A stretch of DNA of 12,040 nucleotides from a virus (lineage: Duplodnaviria; Heunggongvirae; Uroviricota; Caudoviricetes): IMG/VR virus record IMGVR_UViG_2751185968_000006. One strand, given 5' to 3'. Positions 189 to 12,040 of this stretch are shown piece after piece. A program made the position numbers and the translations under genes. The notes below the pieces were generated by a model that had not been told where the DNA came from, ran no database searches, and saw only the letters and a list, made by a program, of their open reading frames with translations. Every line of letters begins with the position of its first letter. Positions within the stretch are counted from its first letter, which is position 1.

Positions 189-243
189 GCAAGCACCTTA
201 AAATCACCATCATACACTAAATCAGTAAGTTGGCAGCATTACC
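1..243 (-). mobile_element. IS1-family insertion sequence, partial; continues beyond the left window edge, terminal inverted repeat ends at 243
   Basis: Reverse complement of 232-243 is GGTAATGCTGCC, followed by AACTTACTGATTTAGTGTATGATGGTG, matching the IS1 left terminal repeat as recalled. The insA reading frame follows on the minus strand. Confidence 0.85.
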
Positions 244-2605
244 AATTAACGGAGGGTATCAGTACATTGAAATGAATGGTACCGCAGAATACTCAGTATT
301 AAATGACGGTTATCAAATTGTTCAAATGGGTGGCGCGGCAAACCAGACTACCCTCAATAATGGTGTGCTACAGGTTTATGGCGCAGCGAATGATCCCACG
401 ATTAAAGGCGGGCGCTTAATCGTTGAAAAAGATGGGATTACCGTCCTTGCCGCTATCGAAAAGGGAGGATTACTGGAGGTTAAAGAGGGGGGATTAGCGA
501 TTGCGGTAGATCAGAAAGCAGGCGGTGCTATTAAAGCAAGCACGCGGGTCATGGAGGCATTCGGAATAAACCGTCTCGGTCAGTTCGAAATCAAGAATGG
601 TATTGCTAACAATATGCTGTTGGAAAACGGCGGAAGTTTGCGAGTTGAAGAAAATGACTTCGCTTATAATACTACTGTAGATAGTGGCGGCTTACTGGAG
701 GTTATGGATGGCGGGACTGCAACTGGCGTTGATAAAAAAGCAGGCGGAAAATTAATTGTCTCAACGAATGCGCTGGAAGTGAGTGGTACAAACAGTAAAG
801 GCCAATTTAGTATAAAAGATGGTGTGTCAAAAAATTATGAACTGGATGATGGTTCCGGGCTCATTGTTATGGAGGACACGCAGGCCATTGATACTATCCT
901 TGATGAGCATGCCACTATGCAATCGCTGGGAAAGGATACTGGTACGAAAGTGCAGGCAAATGCGGTATATGATCTCGGTCGATCAGACCAGAATGGAAGT
1001 ATCACGTATTCCTCTAAAGCCATCTCTGAAAATATGGTTATCAACAATGGCCGCGCTAATGTCTGGGCTGGCACAATGGTTAACGTGTCAGTCAGAGGGA
1101 ATGATGGCATTCTTGAGGTCATGAAGCCGCAAATAAATTATGCACCCGCTATGTTGGTGGGTAAGGTAGTGGTTTCTGAGGGCGCTTCTTTTAGAACGCA
1201 TGGTGCCGTGGATACCAGCAAAGCGGACGTTTCGCTCGAAAATAGCGTATGGGCCATCATTGCCGATATCACTACGACGAACCAAAACACCCTCCTCAAC
1301 TTAGCCAACCTTGCGATGTCTGACGCAAATGTGATTATGATGGATGAGCCAGTGACTCGTTCATCAGTGACGGCAAGTGCGGAAAATTTCATTACGTTGA
1401 CCACCAATACCCTGTCGGGAAACGGCAATTTTTATATGCGTACCGATATGGCTAATCATCAGAGCGATCAGCTCAACGTCACCGGTCAGGCAACAGGTGA
1501 TTTCAAAATATTCGTGACGGACACCGGTGCCAGCCCGGCAGCAGGAGATAGCCTTACACTGGTAACAACGGGCGGCGGTGATGCTGCATTTACGTTGGGC
1601 AATGCCGGAGGCGTTGTTGATATCGGTACGTATGAATATACCTTGCTGGATAATGGCAACCATAGCTGGAGTTTGGCAGAGAATCGCGCGCAAATTACCC
1701 CTTCAACCACTGATGTGCTGAATATGGCGGCCGCACAACCGCTGGTATTTGATGCAGAACTGGACACCGTGCGTGAGCGTCTTGGTAGCGTAAAAAGCGT
1801 TAGTTACGATACGGCGATGTGGAGTTCGGCAATTAACACCCGCAACAACGTGACCACTGATGCGGGAGCTGGTTTTGAGCAAACATTGACGGGCCTGACG
1901 CTCGGTATCGATAGCCGTTTCTCCCGTGAAGAAAGCAGTACAATTCGCGGCTTGTTCTTTGGTTACTCTCATTCTGATATTGGTTTTGATCGCGGCGGAA
2001 AAGGTAATATCGATAGCTATACCCTGGGGGCTTATGCCGGTTGGGAGCATCAGAACGGTGCCTATGTTGATGGGGTGGTGAAAGTTGACCGTTTTGCCAA
2101 CACCATCCATGGCAAGATGAGTAATGGGGCAACAGCGTTTGGCGATTACAATAGTAACGGCGCGGGTGCTCATGTTGAGAGCGGGTTCCGTTGGGTTGAC
2201 GGATTGTGGAGTGTTAGACCCTATCTGGCCTTTACCGGCTTTACCACAGATGGTCAGGACTACACGTTATCAAACGGCATGCGCGCTGATGTGGGAAATA
2301 CCCGGATATTACGCGCTGAAGCGGGAACGGCGGTAAGCTATCACATGGACCTGCAAAATGGTACGACGCTGGAACCCTGGCTGAAAGCCGCCGTACGTCA
2401 GGAATACGCCGATTCTAACCATGTGAAAGTTAATGACGATGGCAAATTTAATAATGATGTGGCTGGAACCCCTGGCGTTTATCAGGCTGGGATAAGGTCA
2501 TCGTTTACCCCGACGTTAAGCGGTCATTTGTCAGTCAGCTATGGCAATGGCGCAGGGGTAGAATCGCCGTGGAATACTCAGGCGGGAGTGGTCTGGACGT
2601 TCTGA
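230..2605 (+). CDS. AIDA-I/Ag43-type autotransporter adhesin, 5'-truncated by IS1 (probable pseudogene: no signal peptide, no credible start)
   Basis: 791-aa ORF with repetitive GG-x-L-x-V passenger-type repeats and a C-terminal beta-barrel-like domain ending in aromatic residues (VVWTF). The frame runs into the IS1 terminal repeat; the only start is a TTG at 230 inside IS1, with an in-frame stop at 218-220. Confidence 0.75.
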   Translation: MAALPINGGYQYIEMNGTAEYSVLNDGYQIVQMGGAANQTTLNNGVLQVYGAANDPTIKGGRLIVEKDGITVLAAIEKGGLLEVKEGGLAIAVDQKAGGAIKASTRVMEAFGINRLGQFEIKNGIANNMLLENGGSLRVEENDFAYNTTVDSGGLLEVMDGGTATGVDKKAGGKLIVSTNALEVSGTNSKGQFSIKDGVSKNYELDDGSGLIVMEDTQAIDTILDEHATMQSLGKDTGTKVQANAVYDLGRSDQNGSITYSSKAISENMVINNGRANVWAGTMVNVSVRGNDGILEVMKPQINYAPAMLVGKVVVSEGASFRTHGAVDTSKADVSLENSVWAIIADITTTNQNTLLNLANLAMSDANVIMMDEPVTRSSVTASAENFITLTTNTLSGNGNFYMRTDMANHQSDQLNVTGQATGDFKIFVTDTGASPAAGDSLTLVTTGGGDAAFTLGNAGGVVDIGTYEYTLLDNGNHSWSLAENRAQITPSTTDVLNMAAAQPLVFDAELDTVRERLGSVKSVSYDTAMWSSAINTRNNVTTDAGAGFEQTLTGLTLGIDSRFSREESSTIRGLFFGYSHSDIGFDRGGKGNIDSYTLGAYAGWEHQNGAYVDGVVKVDRFANTIHGKMSNGATAFGDYNSNGAGAHVESGFRWVDGLWSVRPYLAFTGFTTDGQDYTLSNGMRADVGNTRILRAEAGTAVSYHMDLQNGTTLEPWLKAAVRQEYADSNHVKVNDDGKFNNDVAGTPGVYQAGIRSSFTPTLSGHLSVSYGNGAGVESPWNTQAGVVWTF

Positions 2606-3595: not shown

Positions 3596-3780
3596 GGGTC
3601 CTTCCTGGAATTATGGACCCGTTACGGGGCGGCGACCTCGCGCGTTTTCACTATTTATGAAAATTTTTCGGGATCCATGTCCGGTTTCTCTACAAGTTAA
3701 CCATATGAAAAATATAAAAACATGCTTTCCATGAACCGGACATGCGCAAAAAACAGACACTAAAACCGGACATCGAACCA
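3596..3780 (+). other. Lambda-type cos site, copy A (plus orientation): cosQ-like flank, cosN, and cosB-like region with three ACCGGACAT repeats
   Basis: GTTACG at 3621-3626 then GGGCGGCGACCT at 3627-3638 (the 12-nt lambda cohesive-end sequence), then CGCGCGTTTTCACTATTTATGAAAATTTT resembling the lambda left end as recalled. Repeats: CATGTCCGG 3676-3684 (inverted), ACCGGACAT 3735-3743 and 3765-3773. Confidence 0.6.
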
Positions 3781-3841
3781 GTTAACCGAAAGTGTGCACA
3801 AATCACATGCATTGCTGCGAGTGATTAACAAGTTATCGGCT

Positions 3842-4276
3842 TTACTGTTCTGTATCGGCTGATTGCTCCATGCTGGCACGGCGAACGCTTACGGCATGAC
3901 GCCACCCAGCCAGAAAGCCAGCCATTTTATTTCGTGCCTTGCTCACATCTTCCGGTGAATAGCCGTAAATCTGCAAACCTTCATCAAATCGATGTTCTGT
4001 TTCTTCACTGGAGTACTCGTCACGCTCAGATGAAAGCAGCCTGGCAAACATAATTTTTTCCAGCGCACTGGTTTCTACGTGATATCTGATGGCCTCAAGA
4101 CGGCTTTTACCTGAAGACCAAAGCAATGTATGCCCGATGTGATAACCGCCAGACTTTCCGCGATCCGCATTAAGATACGGCATCCCCTGTTTGGTCCATG
4201 CGCGAATAGTGGTTCTGTTAACCTTGAAATGTTCAGCTATTTCCTGCTGACTTACAAAACAAGCTTTATCAATCAT
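3842..4276 (-). CDS. Terminase small subunit-like protein (lambda Nu1-type N-terminal HTH), 144 aa; candidate packaging-redirecting (Rpp-like) protein
   Basis: N-terminus QQEIAEHFKVNRTTIRAWTKQGMPY resembles lambda Nu1 KKQLADIFGASIRTIQNWQEQGMPV (from memory). It is shorter than Nu1, sits about 90 bp downstream of cos copy B on the same strand, and no large terminase gene is present. Confidence 0.7.
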   Translation of the reverse strand: MIDKACFVSQQEIAEHFKVNRTTIRAWTKQGMPYLNADRGKSGGYHIGHTLLWSSGKSRLEAIRYHVETSALEKIMFARLLSSERDEYSSEETEHRFDEGLQIYGYSPEDVSKARNKMAGFLAGWRHAVSVRRASMEQSADTEQ

Positions 4277-4343
4277 AATGTTACCTTAACTGCATGGTTA
4301 AATATTAATCAAGTGGTGGTGGTGTCACCTTCACGGAAAAACG

Positions 4344-4407
4344 TCATAAATAGCGAAAACCCGCGAGGTCGCCGCCCCGTAACGGGCCATAATTCCAGGA
4401 AGGACCC
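4344..4407 (-). other. Lambda-type cos site, copy B (minus orientation), immediately upstream of the TerS-like gene; inverted relative to copy A
   Basis: Minus-strand reading is GGGTCCTTCCTGGAATTATGGCCCGTTACG-GGGCGGCGACCT-CGCGGGTTTTCGCTATTTATGA; cosN lies at 4366-4377. About 64 bp are near-identical to copy A (3596-3660) in inverted orientation. Confidence 0.65.
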
Positions 4408-4409
4408 GC

Positions 4410-4431
4410 AAAAAAGCCGGATTTCTCCGGC
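4410..4431 (-). terminator. Rho-independent terminator-like hairpin after the 137-aa gene; copy 1 of a thrice-repeated hairpin
   Basis: Plus strand AAAAAA-GCCGGA-TTTC-TCCGGC (stem 4416-4421 / 4426-4431). On the minus strand the hairpin is followed by T6. Confidence 0.45.
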
Positions 4432-4437
4432 CTTGTC

Positions 4438-4851
4438 TCAGATGGTTTTCAGTATGCGATCGATGTCGCCGTCATCGCCTGGGTTTCTGCCATCGTATGC
4501 CATGCCAGCTGATACGGTTTGTGGGCTGTGCATGTCCATAAAGTTTTCAAAGGCTGCGGTAAGCTCTGGTGCAACCTTCGGGCGTTCCTGCTCTATGGTC
4601 ATGTTCAGGATGTTTTTAGCCGTATCAACATCGATACAAGGCACGTTTGCCATTGCACGCAACAGCGGCTGATAGTCTTTATGCTCATGAAGCGCCATAA
4701 TCGCATCAGCGCGCGGCTTGTCCTGCTCTTCCAGTTTGTTGAGTTGATATACGGCCTCGTAGGTTGATAAACCTCTGTCAGCCATTGCCCGCGCTTCGGC
4801 TTTAAATTTACTCGCCAGCGGTAGCGCCATGATGCTTTCATTCGTTGCCAT
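4438..4851 (-). CDS. Hypothetical protein (137 aa) between decoration-like gene and cos; possible head or packaging accessory protein
   Basis: ORF with ATG at 4851 and a GGGGGA Shine-Dalgarno sequence. Position matches a capsid/packaging module; no family recognised. Confidence 0.5.
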   Translation of the reverse strand: MATNESIMALPLASKFKAEARAMADRGLSTYEAVYQLNKLEEQDKPRADAIMALHEHKDYQPLLRAMANVPCIDVDTAKNILNMTIEQERPKVAPELTAAFENFMDMHSPQTVSAGMAYDGRNPGDDGDIDRILKTI

Positions 4852-4863
4852 CGTTCCCCCTGC

Positions 4864-5167
4864 TTATCGGGCCAGCGGCTGAACGGATACGCCAGAACCC
4901 GCAAAGGCGGCGCATTTTTTCGCATCGGTGTCGACGCTCTCAGGCCAGTTAACGGCGGCAATATTGAATATCCCCGTCTTGTAACACTGTGCTGATTTCT
5001 GCTTTGACGTGTCCACGAGGTACGAAGTCAGATAAACAGCCTTGCCAGATTCCTGACCATCCCACGGCTTAAACTCGCCATTGTCCACCAGCATCAGCGG
5101 CAAAATGTACCAGTGTCGTTGATACCTGCTGACTGCCTGCAAATAACTCAATATATGGAGTGTCCAT
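4864..5167 (-). CDS. Head decoration protein, lambda gpD-like; possibly frameshifted
   Basis: The C-terminal frame (supplied ORF 4864-5151) reads PLMLVD...WDGQ...YKTGIF...WPESVD...KKCAAFAGSG, paralleling lambda gpD PLMLD...WDG...YKSGTF...WPEA...KKRTAFAG (from memory). The only ATG with a good RBS (GGGGGA) is at 5167 in another frame, which stops at 5069. Confidence 0.55.
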
Positions 5168-5178
5168 ATAATCCCCCG

Positions 5179-6234
5179 TTAACCAATTTTGACGGTAACA
5201 AATTTGCGAATATCTGCCGGAACCGGCTGCGGTGCGCTGTGTGTCTGCACGTACTCAATCGCCGGATCGCCGTCCTCAATCCAGTTTTTCGGGTAGTACA
5301 TGTTTTGCGTTGCGCCCGTTCTTACCGCTTCCTGATCCATAATCGCACCATAGGCCACCAGCCCTTTATTGTTGGTGTTGCCCAGGACCAGCAAATCAGG
5401 CTCAAGGAAATATTTTTCGGTGCCGTCGCTGTCAGTGTATTTGCCGGAATAGACAATAAGAGCAATATCGCCCAGATAGCCTTTAAAGCTCACCACTTCG
5501 CCCAGGTTTTTACAGGCCATTTCTGCGGCGGATTCTGAACCACGGGAAAGATCGTACAGTTCACGGAATTTTTTAAAGCTGCGTAACGTGCGCCATACCT
5601 CAGCGCCCATAATCATGACGTTGGCGGGGCAACCTGCCTGATCTGCGTATAGTTCGATGTCATAGATTGGATCGTAAATATCTTTATCATGCTCGGACCA
5701 TTTTTTGCCGTCGGACTGCTCTATGATGTTTTTTTCCGGTATCTTCCAGTCGATTTCATAGCGTTCTATGCCTTCGCCCTCAATGATGTTTTTTCCGGTC
5801 GTTACCGCATTCACCGCCAGCCATTCCACGCGTGCCTTAATGGCGTTTATCTGGCGGCGCATGTTGCCAGTAATCAGGCGCATACGGCGATAGGTAGGGT
5901 CGTTAAGCTGTGCCGGATCTTCTCCAGCCATGCGCATGATGGTTTTCGTTGGATCGATTTCGTGCTTTGGCTTCATGTAGCCAGGTTTGATTGTGCTGGT
6001 TTCGTACCCTTTATCGCGCTGAACCTGGCTACCCACCATAGGCGAACAAAACGCCGACATGGTGACTTCTTCAATGTCCAGGGTATCCAGCATGATGTTT
6101 TGCGTGCTGAATGTCGCCACGTTCGGGAAAAACAGCGTGGTAAACAGAGGGCTGAATTTAAAATCCGCAATATCCCCGCGATTCAGGTACATAAAAAGCT
6201 GGTTAGTGTTAAGTGCCGTTGCTTTGCCTGCCAT
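5179..6234 (-). CDS. Major capsid protein, lambda gpE family (351 aa)
   Basis: Collinear similarity to lambda gpE as recalled: FKFSPLFTTLFF vs FKFDPLFLRLFF, PGYMKPKHEIDP vs PGYVKPKHEVNP, DPTYRRMRLITGNMR vs DPAYRRRRIIMQNMR, YKGYLGDIALIVYSG vs YKGMYGDVAIVVYSG, YPKNWIEDGDPA vs YPKNWVTTGDPA. Confidence 0.9.
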   Translation of the reverse strand: MAGKATALNTNQLFMYLNRGDIADFKFSPLFTTLFFPNVATFSTQNIMLDTLDIEEVTMSAFCSPMVGSQVQRDKGYETSTIKPGYMKPKHEIDPTKTIMRMAGEDPAQLNDPTYRRMRLITGNMRRQINAIKARVEWLAVNAVTTGKNIIEGEGIERYEIDWKIPEKNIIEQSDGKKWSEHDKDIYDPIYDIELYADQAGCPANVMIMGAEVWRTLRSFKKFRELYDLSRGSESAAEMACKNLGEVVSFKGYLGDIALIVYSGKYTDSDGTEKYFLEPDLLVLGNTNNKGLVAYGAIMDQEAVRTGATQNMYYPKNWIEDGDPAIEYVQTHSAPQPVPADIRKFVTVKIG

Positions 6235-6440
6235 TATTCACCCCCATAATTTTTATGCATCCCAAGCGCCGCAAGTAAATAAGAGCGTACAAGTGAACCT
6301 ATCGACGGCTCCGGCGTCATCAGCGGATCCAGTCCAGCCGCCACGCCAGCCTCATAGTTTTTTTTGTGGCGCTGCTTGAGCACCTCCACGATTTCGGGGC
6401 TTATGTACACCGAAACACCGCCTTTTTTCTCTTCAGCCAT
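6234..6440 (-). CDS. Hypothetical small protein (about 68 aa), translationally coupled to the major capsid gene
   Basis: Likely start at ATG 6440 (MAEEKKGG...) with AAGAGGAA upstream; the supplied ORF extends to 6473 without an RBS. Its stop overlaps the capsid start as TAATG at 6232-6236. Confidence 0.45.
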   Translation of the reverse strand: MAEEKKGGVSVYISPEIVEVLKQRHKKNYEAGVAAGLDPLMTPEPSIGSLVRSYLLAALGMHKNYGGE

Positions 6441-6493
6441 AGTAAGAAATTCCTCTTCGACTAAAAAAATCATAACTGGATGTTTATCCAGTC

Positions 6494-6524
6494 CTGATTA
6501 TAATCAGAATTGCATTTTATGCAA
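6494..6524 (-). promoter_or_regulatory. Putative sigma70-type promoter for the capsid module, with both hexamers inside palindromes
   Basis: Minus strand: -35 TTGCAT (plus 6519-6524), 16-bp spacer, -10 TATAAT (plus 6497-6502). The -10 lies in the palindrome CTGATTATAATCAG (6494-6507) and the -35 in TTGCATTTTATGCAA (6510-6524). Confidence 0.4.
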
Positions 6525-6604
6525 TAATATTGAGTTATGTTGCAAATTATGAAATGATTATCCCGATCACGAACGCCAGTGCATCCAAAAACCTCATATG
6601 CAAA

Positions 6605-6642
6605 AGCCCGATAAGAACCCTCTGACCTTATCGGGCTTTTTT
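6605..6642 (+). terminator. Terminator-like hairpin with T6 tail on the plus strand
   Basis: Stem AGCCCGATAAG (6605-6615) / CTTATCGGGCT (6627-6637), followed by TTTTTT (6637-6642). No obvious plus-strand gene lies upstream. Confidence 0.4.
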
Positions 6643-6648
6643 GGGCGC

Positions 6649-6670
6649 AAAAAAGCCGGATTGCTCCGGC
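6649..6670 (-). terminator. Rho-independent terminator-like hairpin after the 74-aa gene; copy 2 of the repeated hairpin
   Basis: Plus strand AAAAAA-GCCGGA-TTGC-TCCGGC (stem 6655-6660 / 6665-6670); T6 follows on the minus strand. Confidence 0.45.
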
Positions 6671-6690
6671 TATGTGTGCTGTGTGCTGGA

Positions 6691-6915
6691 TCAGTCTCTG
6701 ATCTCTTTCAGAAATTCTATCAATGCATCTATCTGTTCAGGATTTACCGCCAGCATTTCACCGGATAGAGCACATCTCACAAAACCATGCTGATCCTTTT
6801 CAATCAGTGCGCCCGTCTCCAGGAATGCGCGGTAATCATTGATGCTCATCGTCTCCATGTTGTCAGCATGGTATTTATCACGCTGTTTTAATATCTCATC
6901 AAATTTCATCGGCAT
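6691..6915 (-). CDS. Hypothetical protein (74 aa), stand-alone cassette
   Basis: ATG at 6915 with an AGAGGAAA Shine-Dalgarno sequence. Bracketed by terminator hairpins at 7012-7033 (upstream) and 6649-6670 (downstream). Confidence 0.5.
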   Translation of the reverse strand: MPMKFDEILKQRDKYHADNMETMSINDYRAFLETGALIEKDQHGFVRCALSGEMLAVNPEQIDALIEFLKEIRD

Positions 6916-7011
6916 TGTTTTTTTCCTCTGTTGTGTCTGTTTGTTTCAGATAGTAACTATGCCTGACCGTGACGAAAACCCGGTAATGCGCCATACCGTT
7001 TCAACTGGTGC

Positions 7012-7033
7012 AAAAAAGCCGGATTTCTCCGGC
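7012..7033 (-). terminator. Rho-independent terminator-like hairpin after the PerC-like gene; copy 3 of the repeated hairpin
   Basis: Plus strand AAAAAA-GCCGGA-TTTC-TCCGGC (stem 7018-7023 / 7028-7033); T6 follows on the minus strand. Confidence 0.45.
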
Positions 7034-7040
7034 TGTTTGA

Positions 7041-7313
7041 TTAGCTGTCCTGGTAATTGCGCCATATTTCATCACCAGCACCATCTATACCCATTTCGGC
7101 ATAAGTGCGATCGACTGCCTTTTTCAGGTCTCCGAAATTATCCGGCGGCTCCGGTGCCCTCTGTGCCTTCCTTGAACATTCCAGCCGTCGCATCGTGATG
7201 TGATGCCGTTCCTTGTCTGTCTCCACCAGCTGCATGACTTCACCCCATCGCGCCGCCGCCCTCCGGTAAAAGCCTTTCGCCTCCAGTTCCTCCGCTATGC
7301 GGTCATGTACCAT
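7041..7313 (-). CDS. PerC-family-like transcriptional regulator (about 90 aa)
   Basis: Likely start at ATG 7313 with a strong GAGGGGGTG RBS. The protein MVHDRIAEELEAKGFYRRAAARWGEVMQLVETDKERHHITMRRLEC fits the PerC/Pch pattern (LE..G.WRRAA.RW...TD.ER) as recalled. Confidence 0.45.
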   Translation of the reverse strand: MVHDRIAEELEAKGFYRRAAARWGEVMQLVETDKERHHITMRRLECSRKAQRAPEPPDNFGDLKKAVDRTYAEMGIDGAGDEIWRNYQDS

Positions 7314-7323
7314 CGTCACCCCC

Positions 7324-7734
7324 TCAGAACGAAATATCATCACCGTAAGGGTCATCGCCTCCCGCTGGTGGCTGATTACCCTGTGTGCCTGTGGTTTTGC
7401 GTCTGTTCCCGCCTGGACGTGCCGCGCGGGCACTGATTACGCTGTCTGCGATAACCTGCCAGCCCTGCCGCGTTTCTCCGTTCTGTCCGGTCCACTGGCT
7501 TACCTGCATCGTGCCGGATACGCTGGCAACATCGCCTTTTTGATGTTTAGCCAGGAAGTCGGCCTGTTTGCCAAATGCGATGACCGATAACCATAACGTC
7601 GCCTGTCCGTCCTGTGCCTGGCTGCATGGCAAAGATACCGCCATACGCGCCAGCGTCATCGGTGTGCCCTTGCTGGTCTGTTTTACCTGCGGGTCGTCCA
7701 CCAGCCGCCCGTAAGCGGCTATCTGTGCCGTCAT
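7324..7734 (-). CDS. Single-stranded DNA-binding protein (SSB)-like, 136 aa
   Basis: N-terminus IAAYGRLVDDPQVK resembles the SSB OB-fold start (VILVGNLGQDPEVR), and the C-terminal acidic tip PYGDDISF resembles DDDIPF. The start overlaps the upstream stop as ATGA. Confidence 0.65.
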   Translation of the reverse strand: MTAQIAAYGRLVDDPQVKQTSKGTPMTLARMAVSLPCSQAQDGQATLWLSVIAFGKQADFLAKHQKGDVASVSGTMQVSQWTGQNGETRQGWQVIADSVISARAARPGGNRRKTTGTQGNQPPAGGDDPYGDDISF

Positions 7735-7982
7735 AATTCCACCTCTCCGGTTTTAACGTTGATGGTTGTTACCTGTTCCGCTTCGGCAATCTCCCGTTCT
7801 GTCAGCGTGGCAAAGTTTGCCGCCGCCGTGGTCATGAATGCGCTTATCAGGTCGGGATGTTCCTTCGCGTATCCTTCCCGCGTGTGGCGGTCTATCGTTC
7901 TGATTGCCACCTTTAAGGTGTGCTCAGTCATGTCTAACGCTTTATATTTTGGCTCTGTTCTGTCTCTGCGTTTTTGGGTCAT
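7731..7982 (-). CDS. Hypothetical protein (83 aa from ATG 7982; the supplied ORF extends to a GTG at 8012)
   Basis: ORF translationally coupled to the SSB-like gene. The upstream extension overlaps the iteron array, so the ATG at 7982 is the more likely start. Confidence 0.45.
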   Translation of the reverse strand: MTQKRRDRTEPKYKALDMTEHTLKVAIRTIDRHTREGYAKEHPDLISAFMTTAAANFATLTEREIAEAEQVTTINVKTGEVEL

Positions 7983-7993
7983 TTCTCGCAACC

Positions 7994-8181
7994 TCTCACT
8001 TTTTCGCCTCACTTTTTCAAGCGTCTCACTTCGTCGCAGTTGGGATTTTCGGTTTTTCTATGTGTGTGTTTTATAAGTATTTTTTTACCCCTCACTTTTG
8101 AGGATGTATACAGGTCGAAAAGTGAGGGAGAGCGGGCTAATTTTGGCCCTCTTTCTATCCCCCTCGCTTTTGCTCCTCACT
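7994..8181. repeat. Iteron array and AT-rich region: putative satellite origin of replication, immediately downstream of the replication gene
   Basis: Seven copies of CCTCACTTTT-like motifs: CTCACT at 7995-8000, 8008-8013, 8025-8030, 8091-8096 and 8176-8181, an inverted copy at 8118-8127, and a variant CTCGCT at 8163-8168. An AT-rich stretch lies at 8041-8087; copies 4 and 5 form 12-bp inverted arms 16 bp apart. Confidence 0.5.
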
Positions 8182-8182
8182 T

Positions 8183-8530
8183 TTATAGCGGCGCTACATC
8201 ATCCCCATCGATACTAATAACCCCATCTTTTTCCAGCTTGTACAGCCAGCGCCGGAAGTTTTTCATTTCATACCCCAGCTTTTTCATGTCATCACGTAAC
8301 AGCGGGATCGTGCACTTGTCGCCGTTCTGTGTGCGTGAACGGATGCACCCCCATAGCGCGGTATGGTTTTCCGTCTTGTTCCCTGCCTCCTCGATGCGCT
8401 CCAGTTCAACAGGAGGGCGCGGATCATCCACCACCACCAGCGACGTGATTAATTCACCGTCAGCGTCGGTAAAAAGCTCCACCACGCGTAAGTCATATGC
8501 GGCTTCTTTGAGTTCCTCCGCGTCCTTCAT
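8183..8530 (-). CDS. Replication protein, C-terminal fragment (second piece of a frameshifted primase/helicase-type gene)
   Basis: This frame stays open upstream of the annotated ATG to about 8638 and there encodes DESARGSSAFRASLDAEY, the expected continuation after the HHSGKD motif of RecA-like replication ATPases. Confidence 0.6.
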   Translation of the reverse strand: MKDAEELKEAAYDLRVVELFTDADGELITSLVVVDDPRPPVELERIEEAGNKTENHTALWGCIRSRTQNGDKCTIPLLRDDMKKLGYEMKNFRRWLYKLEKDGVISIDGDDVAPL

Positions 8531-9582
8531 TTTGGTGCATGAGATAACCAGCGCTTTGCTTCCTGCGTCCTCCCTGCGTATCCGGTATTCAGCATCCAGC
8601 GAAGCACGAAATGCACTGGAACCGCGCGCGCTTTCGTCTCATCCTTGCCGGAATGGTGAACCACCAGCACCGTGGCCCCTGTGCGTCGTTTCAGTTCGTC
8701 ACAACCACGGATAAACGCCCCCATATCACGGGAATCATTTTCATCATTCCCACCAAAGCAACGCGCCAGCGTATCCAGAATAATCATGCGTACAGGTTTA
8801 CCCGTTTCCCGCTCCACCTGACGGGCAGCGATAACCATTTCATCAACATCAAGCGGGGCAGCCGGAAAGATGGGGCGGTTTACCAGATACAGATTTTTCA
8901 CCTGCTCATCGTGCACAACCTCCCAGGCTTTTACACGACGCGGAACGCCGATACCGCCTTCACCAACCACATAGAGAACCGCACCATGTGCAACCCTGCG
9001 GCCTCCCCACTGGCGACCAGTGGCAACATGGCACGCCCACGATCCGGCAAGGAATGATTTATAGGACCCGCTAGCCCCGTATATGCTGCATAGCGATACC
9101 GCCGGAATAATCCCCTTAACCACGTAATCCAGTTGCGTGTCGTATCCGGTAGATCCAACGCTCATCGGTAGCGTGGTTTTTCGCTGGTGGTTTTTTTCTT
9201 CCACCGGCTCTTTCCCGCGCACCCGTTCCAGGTATTCGCGCCAGTTCTCCCGCATATGGCTGTGCATCCCTTCGGGGTAATAATTCGCATCAGTTACACC
9301 CGCCGCCGCCAGCTTGTGCGCAATGGCATTAATATTTGATGGCCTGATGTGGCCTGCCTTGTACAGCCGGACACAATAGCGCCCCTCGTCGATGATTCTC
9401 AGGTCTGCCAGTTCATCCAGTTGATCATCAGCCAGCACAACGGGAGGCACATTATCGCCAGCCAGTCGCCCGTCCTGTTCCTGCCACTGTTTTGCATGTG
9501 CCCAGGCATCACTACCCGCAAAAATAATGACTTCGGTCATCTTGTCGTAAGGCTGTTTTTTTAAGTTCGGTGCGCTTTTCAT
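8527..9582 (-). CDS. Primase/helicase-type replication protein (RepA-like P-loop ATPase), N-terminal fragment ending prematurely after a frameshift
   Basis: Walker A GASGSYKS, Walker B MIILDTLARCF, then VLVVHHSGKDE typical of RepA-like helicases. The frame then reads TKARAVPVHF... to a stop at 8527, just downstream of a (CG)4 tract at 8623-8631. Confidence 0.75.
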   Translation of the reverse strand: MKSAPNLKKQPYDKMTEVIIFAGSDAWAHAKQWQEQDGRLAGDNVPPVVLADDQLDELADLRIIDEGRYCVRLYKAGHIRPSNINAIAHKLAAAGVTDANYYPEGMHSHMRENWREYLERVRGKEPVEEKNHQRKTTLPMSVGSTGYDTQLDYVVKGIIPAVSLCSIYGASGSYKSFLAGSWACHVATGRQWGGRRVAHGAVLYVVGEGGIGVPRRVKAWEVVHDEQVKNLYLVNRPIFPAAPLDVDEMVIAARQVERETGKPVRMIILDTLARCFGGNDENDSRDMGAFIRGCDELKRRTGATVLVVHHSGKDETKARAVPVHFVLRWMLNTGYAGRTQEAKRWLSHAPK

Positions 9583-9878
9583 TTCTTGCCCCTGAATCCG
9601 TTAATCATGGTTTTCAGCTTCTGGATGTTTGCCCGTGCCCTGGCGTTGCTGGTGGGCACGTTATGCGGCGCGGTCTGTACCAGAGAAAAATCACGCCGGA
9701 ACTGATAAACAGGCATCACGCAATCATATTCGTAACCTTCACGGCGGTAGGTTACACGCCGTTCTTCCACGCCCTTAATCATTACCGTGCCGCCGTACTG
9801 GTCGCGGTAAATATCACCGCGCGTAAATTTAGGGTGAGTGTTGCCACTGGCAGTTAAGCCAGAATATTTAAGTTTCAT
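9579..9878 (-). CDS. Hypothetical protein (99 aa), coupled to the replication gene
   Basis: ORF in the tiled minus-strand operon; its stop overlaps the replication gene start (ATGA). Overlapping plus-strand ORFs have junk-like composition. Confidence 0.45.
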   Translation of the reverse strand: MKLKYSGLTASGNTHPKFTRGDIYRDQYGGTVMIKGVEERRVTYRREGYEYDCVMPVYQFRRDFSLVQTAPHNVPTSNARARANIQKLKTMINGFRGKK

Positions 9879-9883
9879 TATTT

Positions 9884-10117
9884 TTATTCTCCGGTGTGCT
9901 GTTCTTTATATCTGTCGTGCAATAGATCTATTTCTTGCAGTTCCATTATTACAGGCTCAAGAAGCGTTATTAATGCCGTGGCAATTCTTGATTTTTGTTT
10001 GTCGCGTTCATTGTCGCCAAGTGTTTCAAGCCATATGCGCAATATTTCCAGCATGTTTTCACTGTGAGAAAGTGCAAGAAATGCGCGGTCTATTGTTTCG
10101 TGGTAAATATCACGCAT
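9884..10117 (-). CDS. Hypothetical protein (77 aa)
   Basis: ORF in the tiled minus-strand operon with protein-like, charged composition; no family recognised. Confidence 0.45.
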   Translation of the reverse strand: MRDIYHETIDRAFLALSHSENMLEILRIWLETLGDNERDKQKSRIATALITLLEPVIMELQEIDLLHDRYKEQHTGE

Positions 10118-10343
10118 GGCTTACATCCTCAGGAAATTTTCTTCTGTAACGCGCCTCTGCCACATATTCCGCATAATCGGCGGCGATATTCAGTACATCA
10201 AGCCCCGTTGATTTATATTCTCTCGTGGAAAGTAAGAAAAAAGCCGCTCTAATAAGTTCTGGCATTGACGAAAGCGCATCAGCCGCATCATCAGGAACGC
10301 CGGGAAATTCCTGTTTCAGGGAATTAAAACGATCATCACGCAT
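10110..10343 (-). CDS. Hypothetical protein (77 aa from ATG 10343; the supplied ORF extends to 10391)
   Basis: ATG at 10343 is preceded by a G7 Shine-Dalgarno run and overlaps the upstream stop codon (ATGCGTGA). Confidence 0.45.
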   Translation of the reverse strand: MRDDRFNSLKQEFPGVPDDAADALSSMPELIRAAFFLLSTREYKSTGLDVLNIAADYAEYVAEARYRRKFPEDVSHA

Positions 10344-10557
10344 AACCCCCCCCATTTTCACAATCAGCAACAAGAATATTTTTAGCGTCATTCAGCGACC
10401 GCGTTGCGATGTATCGGATACATTCCAGGGCGAACTGTGTCCGGTCTTTCTGTTCTTCTCCCTGCGCAAGCTCTGCAGTGCATTCAATATCAATAAGCGC
10501 GTGCATCAGCGTAGTGAGTGCGGCGGCTGCTGCGTTCGGTGTGGTTTTATTGTGCAT
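10336..10557 (-). CDS. Hypothetical protein (73 aa from ATG 10557; the supplied ORF extends to 10599)
   Basis: ATG at 10557 is preceded by AGGGGGAAA. No family recognised. Confidence 0.45.
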   Translation of the reverse strand: MHNKTTPNAAAAALTTLMHALIDIECTAELAQGEEQKDRTQFALECIRYIATRSLNDAKNILVADCENGGGYA

Positions 10558-10747
10558 AGGTTTCCCCCTGACGAATACGGGCGGCGAATACAGCAACACA
10601 ACCGGACGGGCAACGGCTACGCGCTTCGCGTTCCGTCCAGGCGGTTACGTGGATGATTTGAGATTCTCCGGCACTCAGGGCCAGAAAACGCCACACAAAG
10701 GCCGTTTGTGTGTGTACAAGGTGTGGTATATGATTTACGGCAACCAT
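10547..10747 (-). CDS. Hypothetical small protein (66 aa), likely first gene of the leftward operon
   Basis: ATG at 10747 is preceded by TAGGAG with a 5-nt spacer. A structured leader hairpin (10779-10809) lies upstream. Confidence 0.35.
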   Translation of the reverse strand: MVAVNHIPHLVHTQTAFVWRFLALSAGESQIIHVTAWTEREARSRCPSGCVAVFAARIRQGETYAQ

Positions 10748-10836
10748 AACGGCTCCTAGTTTACGTTGTTGGTTAGAAGCCCTGCGAGTGGTAATGACAC
10801 TTGCGGGGCTTTGCTTTTTTAAGTGCTCTTGTGTTA

Positions 10837-10883
10837 AGGTGGCCACCTAACAATGGAAAGGCTAATTCAATAGGTGACCACTT
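10837..10883. promoter_or_regulatory. Divergent control region with two related operator-like sites and a consensus -35 hexamer
   Basis: Perfect 12-bp palindrome AGGTGGCCACCT (10837-10848) and a related half-palindromic site AGGTGACCACTT (10872-10883), about 35 bp apart. TTGACA reads on the minus strand at 10888-10883. Confidence 0.35.
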
Positions 10884-10941
10884 GTCAATAATCAAACGCG
10901 ATAAAAGCCCTAAAGGGGACGGGCAATCCCCACAATTCAGA

Positions 10942-11073
10942 ATGCGAATTTCTCCAGAGCTAAAAGAGCAATTCGACAAAGAAGCACAGAGCGACGGCAT
11001 AAGCCTAGCCAACTGGCTTAAAGAGTTGGGGCGCACTGAACTAAAGCGGCGCGGCATAGAACCCAAAGGATAA
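10942..11073 (+). CDS. Small ribbon-helix-helix (Arc/CopG-like) DNA-binding protein, 43 aa; candidate repressor
   Basis: MRISPELKEQFDKEAQSDGISLANWLKELGRTELKRRG fits the RHH pattern of a short N-terminal beta-strand followed by two helices. It is divergent from the main operon and next to the operator-like palindromes; its RBS is weak. Confidence 0.45.
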   Translation: MRISPELKEQFDKEAQSDGISLANWLKELGRTELKRRGIEPKG

Positions 11074-11130
11074 AAACTATCAGCGCCGTGGTGTGAGGTA
11101 TTACGGCGCATTGCTATGCAGGACAACACA

Positions 11131-11304
11131 ATGACCGATAAAGAATTGACCAAAACATTATCACCGGCACGGAAAAGACGGCGCAGAAAGATAGAGCATG
11201 AATCAGAAAGATTCGCACCATGTGCTTTTGCCCTTGAGCAATTCCTTAAAGAGTATAGGGAAAAGCGCTCATTGCAGGTATGGCAACGAACTGAACCAGA
11301 CTGA
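11131..11304 (+). CDS. Hypothetical small basic protein (57 aa), second gene of the rightward pair
   Basis: ATG at 11131 is preceded by AGGA with a 7-nt spacer. It has an arginine/lysine-rich N-terminus (ARKRRRRK) and is followed by a plus-strand terminator. Confidence 0.35.
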   Translation: MTDKELTKTLSPARKRRRRKIEHESERFAPCAFALEQFLKEYREKRSLQVWQRTEPD

Positions 11305-11398
11305 TTGCATTGCCCACCAGCCTGATAGCGGCTATCATCCCCGTGCTTATGTTTGGGATCATATACACATAAGGCGCAGCGGGTTAATTGTTCAGAAA

Positions 11399-11426
11399 GG
11401 CGGCTCCATATCGGGGCCGCTTTTTT
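11399..11426 (+). terminator. Rho-independent terminator of the rightward RHH operon, convergent with alpA
   Basis: Stem GCGGCTCC (11400-11407) / GGGGCCGC (11413-11420) with one G-U pair, loop ATATC, followed by T6 (11421-11426). Confidence 0.5.
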
Positions 11427-11452
11427 CGTGTTTGTCATATCTGTGATACCCG

Positions 11453-11659
11453 TTAAGCAGCCGTTCCGCGTGCTTCCTGTTCGCGTTCTTTCTGCCAGGC
11501 CAACACATCATCCTCATACCATCCGCGACGGCGTAAACCAACGCGAAAACCCTGCGGAAATTCTCCGGCGTTGATCATGCTTTGCAGCGTGCTGTCTGCC
11601 TTGATGTGGATAATTTTTTTTACTTCCTGGCGAAAGATAATTTTTCTGATTGCTTCCAT
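11453..11659 (-). CDS. alpA: AlpA-family (phage excisionase/regulator-like) DNA-binding protein, 68 aa
   Basis: KADSTLQSMINAGEFPQGFRVGLRRRGWYEDDVLAWQ matches the AlpA/Xis-type pattern (...FP.P.K.G.R...W...EV..W) as recalled. Confidence 0.7.
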   Translation of the reverse strand: MEAIRKIIFRQEVKKIIHIKADSTLQSMINAGEFPQGFRVGLRRRGWYEDDVLAWQKEREQEARGTAA

Positions 11660-11764
11660 CGTGATTTACCTTGTGAATCCGGTGTATTCCGGTGACAAAT
11701 ACGGTAAATCATCGGATATGGGTAAAAACAGTTCCCACCGTTTTTAAACGGTATACACCGTTTT

Positions 11765-12040
11765 GGTAATGACTCCAACTTACTGATAGTGTTTTATGTT
11801 CAGATAATGCCCGATGACCTTGTCATGCAGCTCCACCGATTTTGAGAACGACAGTGACTTCCGTCCCAGCCTTGCCAGATGTTGTCTCAGATTCAGATTA
11901 TGTCGCTCAATGCGCTGAGTGTAACGCTTGCTGATAACGTGCAGCTTTCCCTTCAGGCGTGATTCATACAGCGGCCAGCCATCCGTCATCCATACCACGA
12001 CCTCAAAGGCCGACAGCAGGCTCAGAAGACGCTCCAGTGT
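11765..12040 (-). mobile_element. IS1-family insertion sequence, partial; right terminal repeat at 11765, continues beyond the right window edge
   Basis: GGTAATGACTCCAACTTACTGATAGTGTTTTATGTTCAGATAATGCCCGATGAC from 11765 matches the IS1 right terminal repeat as recalled. The insB frame follows on the minus strand. Confidence 0.9.
11780..12040 (-). CDS. insB: IS1 InsB transposase, C-terminal part (gene runs off the window edge)
   Basis: Minus-strand translation [86 protein letters not shown] matches the InsB C-terminus as recalled; it is in frame to the window edge. Confidence 0.85.

Follow-up and report, generated by a model that had tools for sequence, protein, structure and literature searches.

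In the immI operon of phage P1, which comprises the c4 antisense RNA, icd and ant1/2, icd is the first cistron. The product, Icd, is an inhibitor of cell division (PMC8198154). In the P1 record, c4 target sites are marked over the start of icd, an overlap of icd with ant1 is annotated, and icd carries the remark 'apparently required for expression of ant'. The immI region of phage P22 contains mnt, arc, ant and the sar antisense RNA. Among phage satellites, the closest described relatives are the Gram-negative PICIs EcCICFT073 and EcCIED1a, whose early region is ordered int-alpA-(small ORFs)-pri/rep. In EcCICFT073, the gene that follows alpA is activated by AlpA, on which induction depends. 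Every E. coli PICI analysed encodes RgdR, and how PICIs stay silent is described as unclear (PMC6092414). On Gram-negative PICI maps, the block from alpA to the replicase gene is drawn as 'hypothetical'. RgdR (ECs1581) comes from the E. coli O157:H7 Sakai element Sp7, also known as OI-51 or CP-933C and studied as the cf-PICI EcCIEDL933; its counterpart in EcCICFT073 is C1493. It is a pleiotropic LEE1 activator and motility repressor with non-specific DNA binding, and its R20C variant is inactive on T3S (PMC3378721). The C-terminal Tudor-like, RNA-polymerase-interacting domains of CarD and UvrD/PcrA also count among the closest known systems.

The window, a stretch of 12,040 nucleotides, is 99.9% identical to the corresponding locus of CP000036.1. 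It carries a phage satellite of the PICI type beside yejO. The satellite has yejO on one side and tRNA-Pro/yejM on the other, in a Shigella boydii-like chromosome. The gene order of Gram-negative PICIs is present, with an alpA-type regulator followed by RgdR and pri/rep on one strand. According to the ORF list and the annotation of relatives, tail and lysis genes are absent and the size is about 10-15 kb, as in PICIs. Genes annotated in related islands are int, alpA, RepA, SSB, PerC, Phage_cap_E capsid, HDPD and Nu1 TerS. Like EcCICFT073 and EcCIED1a, the island has an AlpA-like regulator; its replicase gene is immediately preceded by RgdR and followed downstream by SSB and PerC. Unlike these two PICIs, it has a morphogenesis module with a lambda E-like capsid protein, an HDPD decoration protein and a Nu1-type TerS. 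The full cf-PICI head module (portal, protease, major capsid, adaptors, TerS, TerL), complete in Sakai Sp7, is lacking in relatives of the same layout, whose head genes are only Phage_cap_E, HDPD and Nu1 TerS. In the phage collection, almost nothing resembles the region at the DNA or protein level. The overall picture is an ordinary one: an early operon from a familiar type of mobile element that E. coli and Shigella genomes carry by the thousand.

The copy in the window also differs from EcCICFT073 and EcCIED1a by a frameshifted rep and by an IS1 at the int-proximal end, where it takes the place of the sequence beyond alpA. The window contains no integrase because this IS1 begins at position 11765. 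In the near-identical CP000036.1 locus the integrase adjoins a sulfatase-family (yejM-like) gene, and in another relative, L001, it adjoins tRNA-Pro and yejM. The replicase has 351 aa here as compared with 465-466 aa in relatives; comparison with CP000036.1 locates the cause, a 1-nt deletion, at position 8631. This copy of the island therefore looks defective, and the small genes may be out of use in this strain.

Five tiled minus-strand ORFs of 66, 73, 77, 77 and 99 aa (ORF1 to ORF5) run into the replicase gene, just as the original prediction described. The stop-start overlaps that it reported, ATGA and ATGCGTGA, are also present. ORF1 and ORF2 overlap by 11 nt (ATGCACAATAA), ORF2/ORF3 and ORF3/ORF4 by 8 nt each (ATGCGTGA), a spacer of 5 nt separates ORF4 from ORF5, and ORF5 is joined to rep by ATGA. 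The claim of ribosome-binding sites holds too, since a purine-rich SD-like motif precedes every start (AGGAG, GGGGA, G8, GAGGA and GGAG from ORF1 to ORF5, and AGGGG before rep). Each ORF has homologues in 103 to 135 of the 137 related loci, and the spacing ORF3(-8 or +1)ORF4(+5)ORF5(-4)rep is repeated in most of them. Pooled dN/dS against the window is 0.29 for ORF1, 0.46 for ORF2, 0.27 for ORF3, 0.32 for ORF4 and 0.33 for ORF5, and third-position changes are in excess in the comparison of all ORFs with the window. The ORFs are real coding genes of the satellite, located upstream of the replication gene and coupled to it. A lack of conservation across related islands had been named as the outcome that would speak against them; the frames are instead kept, under purifying selection.

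Other parts of the original prediction have to be amended. Five ORFs are present here, whereas many relatives have four genes, ORF2 and ORF3 being there a single gene of 144-155 aa. The view that none of the ORFs matches a recognised family is wrong for ORF1 (NF033153, P1 Icd) and for ORF5 (DUF4222, RgdR). With these two in known families, to call the region the least characterised part of the element was an overstatement. Remote homology searches, proposed at that time, assigned ORF1 and ORF5 and left ORF2-ORF4 with no homology-based function. Structure prediction, proposed likewise, yielded a barrel fold for ORF5 and a poor model of the fused ORF2-3 protein. Two genes of the 'hypothetical' block between alpA and the replicase are now placed in families with experimental precedent.

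Our overall reading, to which we give a probability of about 0.65, is that the region belongs to a PICI early operon with an Icd-like gated leader, a split ORF2/ORF3 gene, an orphan (ORF4) and RgdR together with the replicase. The region would be the promoter-proximal part of the satellite's early (replication) operon, its cistrons being read leftwards. As the cistrons are chained by stop/start overlaps, ribosomes can travel from ORF1 through to the replicase gene. The features are listed in Table 1.

Table 1 Positions of the features discussed, in window coordinates
Feature	Positions	Strand	Evidence
Displaced C-terminal part of the frameshifted replicase	8183..8530	-	matches C-terminus of the 465-aa RepA of L001
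Replicase, RepA-type AAA_25 helicase, ATGA-coupled to ORF5, truncated	8527..9582	-	AAA_25 1.6e-43
ORF5, 99 aa, RgdR orthologue by similarity (DUF4222), RGD at residues 20-22	9579..9878	-	PF13973, ECs1581
ORF4, 77-aa orphan protein, predicted helical	9884..10117	-	phrog_2196 8e-42
ORF3, 77 aa, forms the C-terminal half of the split gene, model all-helical with low confidence	10110..10343	-	phrog_2512, phrog_24341
Poly-G tract (G8) at ORF2/ORF3 boundary, likely also the ORF3 SD	10346..10353	-	length comparison
ORF2, 73 aa, N-terminal half of split gene, predicted helical hairpin	10336..10557	-	phrog_2512, AF2
ORF1, 66 aa, Icd-like, first cistron	10547..10747	-	NF033153, P1 Icd similarity
-10-like box TATGAT within ORF1 codons 5-7, candidate promoter	10729..10734	+	conserved
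Terminator-like hairpin (10776-10812) and T-rich tail, just upstream of the ORF1 SD	10776..10822	+	fold, covariation
Divergent ribbon-helix-helix (RHH; Arc/HicB-like) gene	10882..11073	+	phrog_228 Arc-like repressor 1.4e-6
Basic ORF (62 aa), downstream of RHH	11116..11304	+	present in 79 loci, dN/dS 0.38
AlpA-like HTH regulator	11453..11659	-	phrog_66 5.5e-7

ORF1 matches the NCBIfam Icd-like family NF033153 with 64.6 bits (cut-off 25, E 6e-18), and P1 Icd itself reaches 52.6 bits. A direct comparison of ORF1 with P1 Icd gives 41% identity over 46 aa (E 1e-7), and ORF1 is 95% identical to ECs1577 of Sakai Sp7. By sequence, ORF1 is homologous to Icd of phage P1, with the likeness limited to about 46 residues. 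As in P1 immI, the Icd homologue is the first cistron and overlaps the start of the next gene. In contrast to P1, no Ant is found downstream of ORF1, and its place is taken by small orphans, RgdR and the replicase. By analogy with P1, ORF1 may block host cell division on island induction. Its translation as a leader cistron probably licenses expression of all downstream genes.

A candidate antisense element lies over the ORF1 start. On the + strand, the hairpin has 15 pairs followed by TTTTTT. Folding on this strand was equal or better in 40 of 40 variants. Compensatory changes are seen at 8 of the 18 pairs, many pairs being G-U. In three divergent ORF1 5' variants, the T, A, T and the final T of the TATGAT box are invariant; since the box is within coding sequence, its conservation could reflect protein constraint. 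A sigma-70 consensus scan found no passing promoter for the antisense RNA or for the operon. The covarying opposite-strand terminator hairpin and the conserved -10-like box suggest a cis-antisense RNA of about 80 nt that would gate the operon in a manner analogous to P1 c4-icd-ant. This short opposite-strand RNA would pair with the ORF1 ribosome-binding site, thereby shutting the operon in the quiescent island. The block of leader translation would then silence RgdR and the replicase by polarity.

The likeness to P1 immI extends to the RNA element, putative here, which is aimed at the icd/ORF1 translation-initiation region. A C4/CI-type RNA was considered and rejected; Rfam gave no C4 match, whether at the gathering threshold or with E allowed up to 10, and the window has no C4-family RNA, unlike P1 immI. 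Moreover, the P1 RNA is processed from the same strand whereas the putative RNA here would be a true cis-antisense RNA from the opposite strand. With P22 immI the locus shares an RHH (Arc-like) gene and a putative short antisense RNA that covers a ribosome-binding site, in a region of the immunity type. It differs from P22 by the lack of an Ant homologue, by an RHH protein with only weak similarity to Arc and by another arrangement and other targets. If the gate exists, it would be the immI-like logic of c4-icd-ant rebuilt with a true antisense RNA, and it would supply the missing negative control of PICIs, for which the antisense element is a directly testable candidate.

ORF5 matches Pfam DUF4222 (PF13973) with 85.7 bits (cut-off 27); its identity with RgdR/ECs1581 is 81% over 99/99 aa. 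On these similarities, we assign ORF5 as an RgdR orthologue. Both proteins have 99 aa, the RGD motif at residues 20-22, a DUF4222 core at residues 20-68, the same position and an ATGA overlap with the primase/replicase gene. In the motif context of ORF5, KFT-R20-G21-D22-IYR, G21 and D22 are invariant in 53 homologues and R20 varies. In contrast to Sakai Sp7, ORF5 is followed by a RepA-type helicase and not by a 710-aa primase, and the host chromosome is Shigella-like. A LEE target is not expected in such a chromosome. The model of ORF5 shows a Tudor/SH3-like barrel and a basic C-terminal helix. A BFVD fold search with ORF5 returned only uncharacterised and DUF1653 proteins. The scan of genome contigs with ORF5 found 2 loci only. 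In one phage match, a frame resembling DUF4222 immediately precedes a gene for replication protein O.

In every case RgdR is coupled to a replicase, Sakai Sp7 included. Four replicase types are found, with a common N-terminal domain of about 120 aa. Because of this constant coupling to the satellite replicase, the native role of RgdR is most likely in satellite transcription or replication initiation. Against this, its published phenotypes concern host genes and not the satellite cycle. The predicted fold bears on an EHEC virulence regulator that is also the fixed partner of the satellite replicase. To go further and propose that Gram-negative PICIs are silenced by a cis-antisense translational gate of about 80 nt, with RgdR as a Tudor-fold, CarD-like RNA-polymerase-binding factor, is tentative, and we consider this combined proposal unlikely.

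ORF4 has 528 matches, nearly all of 77 aa, in E. coli. An exhaustive search gave 9 representatives among 1.84 billion proteins, hence no distant annotated relative. With ECs1580, at the equivalent position, it shares 26% identity (E 3e-7). These searches define ORF4 as a narrow Escherichia/Shigella orphan. It would be a lineage-restricted helical protein of the early operon. ORF2, ORF3 and ORF4 have no match in Pfam, NCBIfam or PADLOC. Their PHROGs families (phrog_2196 for ORF4) are without known function, and PDB sequence and profile searches with the three were empty or insignificant. The idea that ORF4 is a paralogue of ORF2-3 was discarded after profile-profile comparison (probability 0.4%).

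ORF2 matches positions 1-76 of the 154 positions of phrog_2512 and ORF3 matches positions 77-154. Fused homologues of 144-155 aa are abundant. The two ORFs are the halves of a single gene that is divided at the poly-G tract. Over 137 loci the tract varies from G7 to G11, a range also seen in complete E. coli genomes, and a fused ORF is found only at G7 and G10. Fused and split states both persist in nature, and ORF2 and ORF3 alleles reassort across the tract. The AF2 model of the fused protein, whose overall pLDDT of 55 is too low for a fold search, has two modules and a disordered Gly linker; in it, residues 9-67 form two helices (pLDDT about 70). The tract would encode the Gly linker and double as the ORF3 SD, its length joining or separating the modules. 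Two genes of the block are one modular gene toggled by a poly-G tract. We take ORF2 and ORF3 to be accessory proteins of the satellite life cycle. Programmed frameshifting at the tract is not favoured, since ORF3 comes with an ATG and an SD of its own, and alleles that are in frame occur at chance frequency.

Could the gene in truth always be fused, the split being either a homopolymer error of sequencing or assembly or the sign of a dead pseudogene? Homopolymers are error-prone, PGAP calls one relative 'frameshifted' and fused proteins are common. However, G8 is the commonest tract state, seen in 66 of the 137 loci. At an identity of at least 99%, the G8 query matches 208 complete E. coli genomes, with Nissle 1917 and ATCC 25922 among them. 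The CP000036.1 locus carries matching gene calls of 73 and 93 aa. The tract state is also consistent within lineages, all sampled O157:H7 genomes (at least 15) having a span of G7 length. The in-frame share of loci, only 28%, is close to the third that a lack of constraint would give, and in out-of-frame loci ORF3 is intact from its own ATG (58 of the 66 G8 loci, 26 of the 30 G9 loci). Taken separately, ORF2 and ORF3 keep the dN/dS values given above. We consider an error or a pseudogene very improbable. A fast phase-variation (contingency) switch between fused and split protein within a population is a less remote idea. Tract lengths differ between loci with identical 250-nt flanks on both sides (one group contains G7 four times, G8 once and G9 once), elsewhere G or C runs of at least 8 are seldom found (19 across 1.23 Mb of related loci), and the length polymorphism shifts the frame in 72% of loci. 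Against this, the uniform length in sampled O157:H7 points to slow switching on the scale of epidemiological time, mismatch repair operates in E. coli, and no phenotype is known. We therefore rate fast switching as quite unlikely.

What the genes do together can also be read otherwise. According to the original prediction, this position would hold regulators of induction and helper-interference factors. The regulatory half finds an echo in ORF5, whose counterpart RgdR is a published regulator (PMC3378721). In addition, the 5' modules are allelically diverse and reassorting, with median identities among related loci of 54% for ORF1 and 51% for ORF2, as would be expected if the proteins face variable phage partners. 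Evidence for interference was not found; PADLOC defence models gave no match for ORF1, fused ORF2-3, ORF4, ORF5, the RHH gene or the 62-aa ORF, nor did other defence or interference families. Published E. coli PICI interference is not mapped to these small genes (PMC6092414). Induction of EcCICFT073 maps to alpA, and the accessory genes tested did not account for interference. ORF3-ORF5 are highly conserved (85-96% identity) and not diversifying, and their constant coupling to the replicase argues for replication or early functions. That the ORFs are mainly regulators and interference factors is accordingly unlikely. Less probable still is that ORF1 and the antisense RNA stabilise the island as an addiction module resembling a type I toxin-antitoxin pair and do not gate the operon. 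ORF1 is small and, as an Icd homologue, potentially toxic, and a terminator-bearing cis-antisense element, conserved with covariation, overlaps its SD and ATG. Yet ORF1 is not a hydrophobic membrane peptide, unlike typical type I toxins, and the element matches no Rfam family, antitoxin families included. Moreover, ORF1 heads a tightly overlapping operon, as does P1 icd, which controls downstream expression.

In the early-operon reading that we prefer, control would also come from the flank. The AlpA-like activator may switch on the operon promoter when a helper phage is active. Its gene product scores below the cut-off of Pfam Phage_AlpA (0.0035, 17.6 bits for a cut-off of 21). A 221-aa minus-strand ORF at 10773-11438 (ECs1576 in Sakai), considered as a sixth operon gene, is probably a shadow frame. 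Its dN/dS is 0.58-1.10 outside the overlap with the + strand genes and, inside the overlap, exceeds theirs, which is a weak test. The 62-aa ORF has no family match. The RHH frame has a dN/dS of 0.24, reaches Pfam HicB below cut-off (9e-4) and is annotated on the same strand in L001. A palindrome lies at 10835-10849. Finally, a + strand terminator follows the 62-aa ORF at 11394-11426.

The five small ORFs tiled ahead of the replicase gene (rep) are real genes. Their coordinates, all on the minus strand, agree exactly with the original prediction. ORF1 and ORF2 meet at ATGCACAATAA, and the ORF2/ORF3 and ORF3/ORF4 junctions are both ATGCGTGA. ORF4 and ORF5 are separated by a 5-nt spacer and the junction between ORF5 and the replicase is ATGA. 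A purine-rich SD-like motif precedes all five starts. Using tblastn, each ORF was found in 103-135 of 137 related loci drawn from viral and metagenome contigs. The dominant architecture in these loci is ORF3(-8 or +1)ORF4(+5)ORF5(-4)rep. A check for constraint on the reading frames across related islands, suggested with the original prediction, was run with the window as reference. Pooled dN/dS is 0.29 for ORF1, 0.46 for ORF2, 0.27 for ORF3, 0.32 for ORF4 and 0.33 for ORF5, and third-position changes are clearly in excess. The range of 0.27-0.46, the homologues in related loci and the recurring chain thus argue against frames free of constraint.

Features of the five-ORF block and of the surrounding island (window positions)
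Feature	Position	Strand	Remark
Autotransporter ORF	230-2605	+	791 aa; corresponds to yejO; adjoins island
144-aa ORF	3842-4276		relatives have a 180-aa Nu1-type small terminase in this position
Lambda E-like major capsid protein	5179-6234		in morphogenesis block 3842-6473
1-nt deletions vs CP000036.1	8631, 7115, 6642		from alignment
PerC-family regulator	7041-7433		PF06069, 1.2e-42; downstream of rep
SSB	7324-7734		PF00436; downstream of rep
Replicase gene (rep)	8527-9582		RgdR gene always precedes it (loci L001, L002, L006, L011 compared)
ORF5	9878-9579	-	99 aa
ORF4	10117-9884	-	77 aa
ORF3	10343-10110	-	77 aa
ORF2	10557-10336	-	73 aa
Poly-G tract (G8)	10346-10353		ORF2/ORF3 boundary; sets ORF3 one base out of frame
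ORF1	10747-10547	-	66 aa
TAT..T box	10729-10734	+	within ORF1 codons 5-7, ~40 nt upstream of hairpin
Hairpin	10776-10812	+	15 pairs; upstream of ORF1; followed by GCTTTTTT
Near-palindrome	10835-10849		TAAGGTGGCCACCTA; between ORF1 and RHH gene
RHH gene (Arc/HicB-like)	10882-11073	+	phrog Arc-like 1.4e-6; dN/dS 0.24
Basic ORF	11116-11304	+	62 aa; downstream of RHH gene
Strong terminator	11394-11426	+	after 62-aa ORF
AlpA-like gene	11659-11453	-	
IS1-like sequence	11765-12040		InsB fragment ORF 11780-11998

The block belongs to the known early region of phage-inducible chromosomal islands (PICIs). Two of its genes fall into named families, and for one of them there is experimental work. The evidence best supports an early operon in which translation is chained from cistron to cistron, beginning with an Icd-like leader, ORF1, and ending with the replicase. 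An AlpA-type activator would turn this operon on during helper phage activity; such activation with an active helper phage was shown for EcCICFT073 (PMC6092414). Antisense pairing at the ribosome-binding site of the leader would keep it off. The analysis shows the genes and their family assignments, how the operon is laid out, the ORF2/ORF3 split and the conservation of the antisense hairpin. We infer expression, polarity along the chain and the native roles of ORF2-ORF5. New here are the recognition that ORF2/ORF3 form a modular gene, either split or fused, a candidate cis-antisense regulator over ORF1, and the fold of RgdR (ORF5) together with its fixed pairing to the replicase.

The five ORFs had at first been said to match no recognised family. 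This holds for ORF4 and has to be revised for ORF1 (Icd-like) and ORF5 (DUF4222/RgdR). ORF1 scores 64.6 bits with the NCBIfam Icd-like model (cut-off 25), which P1 Icd itself also matches. It shares 41% identity over 46 residues with the characterised Icd of phage P1 (E 1e-7) and 95% with ECs1577 of Sp7, the O157 Sakai element. As the first cistron of the c4-icd-ant operon of P1, icd shares an ATGA overlap with ant1 (P1 record annotation; PMC8198154). According to the record annotation, icd is apparently needed for ant expression. C4 RNA binds sites over the icd start, thereby repressing icd and ant translation (P1 record; PMC8198154). By analogy with c4-icd-ant, antisense pairing at the leader ribosome-binding site probably keeps the operon described here silent. 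A statement in PMC8198154, citing Riedel 1993, is that P1 Icd blocks host cell division; ORF1 may likewise be a host division inhibitor.

A search anchored on the conserved TCTAACC flank located a hairpin ahead of ORF1, in 40 variants, in 106 of 130 loci having enough upstream sequence. All 40 variants fold equally well or better on the plus strand. The gain, usually 3-11 kcal/mol, arises because G-U pairs there correspond to C-A mismatches on the other, operon strand. RNAalifold identified compensatory changes in 8 of 18 pairs. The box pattern TAT..T is invariant (TATGAT, TATAAT or TATGCT) and common to three otherwise different ORF1 5' ends. Box and terminator hairpin with T tail (10729-10822, plus strand, opposite to the operon) bracket the start codon and SD of ORF1. 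From sequence, they predict a candidate cis-antisense RNA of ~80 nt, perfectly complementary to this start codon and SD. An Rfam search with this candidate gave no family match, and a literature search found no description of it.

Further right, the RHH (ribbon-helix-helix) gene, the 62-aa ORF and the terminator form a two-gene unit divergent from the operon (region 10835-11426). Together with the near-palindrome, this unit could represent a repressor and its operator, a component undescribed for Gram-negative PICIs. A 221-aa ORF (10773-11438, minus strand) spans the gap between alpA and ORF1, antisense to the RHH unit; its Sakai equivalent is annotated as ECs1576. This frame is open in diverged relatives and is probably a shadow frame, since its dN/dS is 0.58-1.10 outside overlaps.

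A fused ORF2-ORF3 query retrieved 456 proteins, and those listed have 144-155 residues with 94-100% query coverage. The junction in fused homologues is CENGGVMRDD or CENGGGVMRDD. Scanning two collections gave 136 junction loci, with tracts of G7 (n=33), G8 (n=65), G9 (n=30), G10 (n=6) and G11 (n=2). Insertions follow the run in two G8 loci (TGG) and in one G10 locus (AG). Counted over 137 loci, and also in complete E. coli genomes, tract length varies from G7 to G11. The frames are fused only by G7 and G10 (28% of loci), and the tract decides between one protein of 144-155 aa and two of about 75 aa. This variation is not noise: an 88-nt G8 query matched 208 complete E. coli genomes, including Nissle 1917 and ATCC 25922, with at least 99% identity. 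In 42 full-length matches, sampled at even spacing, the subject sequence spanned 87 nt (n=17), 88 nt (n=13), 89 nt (n=11) or 90 nt (n=1). RefSeq annotation is consistent, with one gene for spans 87 and 90 and two for span 88. The span is 87 nt in all O157:H7 genomes sampled, and the gene calls in CP000036.1 are split as in the window. Even so, tract length differs between loci with identical 250-nt flanks.

Starting at its own ATG, ORF3 reaches full length in 58 of the 66 loci with G8 and in 26 of the 30 with G9. The alleles flanking the tract on its left and right are seen in all four pairings (43, 39, 30 and 17 loci). Because they reassort freely, the conserved junction is also a module boundary. 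AF2 modelled the fused protein poorly as a whole (pLDDT 55): the ORF2 part is a helical hairpin (pLDDT about 70), the tract falls in a disordered Gly linker, and the ORF3 part is helical at low confidence. G or C runs of at least 8 are otherwise rare (19 in 1.23 Mb of related loci). We conclude that ORF2 and ORF3 are two modules of one protein, working joined or separate, and that the poly-G tract probably also serves as the SD of ORF3.

ORF4 has hundreds of near-identical 77-aa counterparts in E. coli and only 9 representatives in a library of 1.84 billion proteins. Family, structure and paralogy searches all gave no match for it. Its positional counterpart in Sp7, ECs1580, is distantly related (26% identity, E 3e-7).

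ORF5 matches Pfam DUF4222 (1.6e-24) and is 81% identical to ECs1581, the published regulator RgdR, across all 99 residues, with R20-G21-D22 present. RgdR (99 aa, pI 10), encoded in OI-51/CP-933C, activates both the LEE1 promoter and type III secretion, and it is a repressor of motility. Its DNA binding is weak and non-specific. Its RGD motif (residues 20-22) is required, R20C making the protein inactive, and orthologues are known in UPEC (C1493) and Shigella (Flockhart et al., PMC3378721). All analysed E. coli PICIs encode RgdR (Fillol-Salom et al., PMC6092414). ORF5 overlaps the replicase start in every locus with enough flank, as does the RgdR gene of Sakai Sp7. In a lambdoid phage, a DUF4222-like frame lies directly upstream of the replication protein O gene. 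The replicase has four forms: an AAA_25 helicase (465-471 aa), two primase-helicase types (582-604 aa) and a 707-710 aa type. It is modular, with a conserved N-terminal domain of ~120 aa common to all and at least 4 different C-terminal engines. The constant replicase overlap, Sp7 and the lambdoid neighbour make a native role of ORF5 in satellite replication or early transcription likely.

Region 3614-11764 aligns at 99.9-100% identity with CP000036.1, which we take to be Shigella boydii Sb227. The two sequences differ by two adjacent substitutions and three 1-nt deletions; the deletions could be genuine decay or sequencing errors. At 8631, the deletion shifts the frame of the RepA-type replicase, leaving 351 aa and a displaced 115-aa ORF in place of 466 aa. 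The deletion at 7115 falls within a 130-aa PerC-family ORF, upstream of its PerC domain. Homology to CP000036.1 and E. coli islands stops where the IS1-like sequence starts (11765). IS1 abuts alpA and stands between it and the expected integrase end. With its replicase truncated by the 8631 deletion and IS1 beside alpA, the element is probably defective in this strain.

The layout is that of a Gram-negative PICI (PMC6092414). In L001, the best relative from E. coli, the element is located between yejO and integrase/tRNA-Pro/yejM. It encodes int, an HTH regulator, Icd-like genes, DUF4222, RepA helicase, SSB, PerC, major capsid, head decoration and small terminase. In further E. coli strains the inner block of this element occurs elsewhere, beside roxA, and both integrase and AlpA differ. 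Lacking portal, protease and TerL, the window element is not a capsid-forming PICI; Sakai Sp7, in contrast, has all three. PICI-borne PerC/Pch homologues are reported to activate LEE (PMC6092414). In the morphogenesis block, small ORFs occupy the position of the relatives' head-decoration gene. In L001, yejO is a pseudogene by annotation, having an internal stop.
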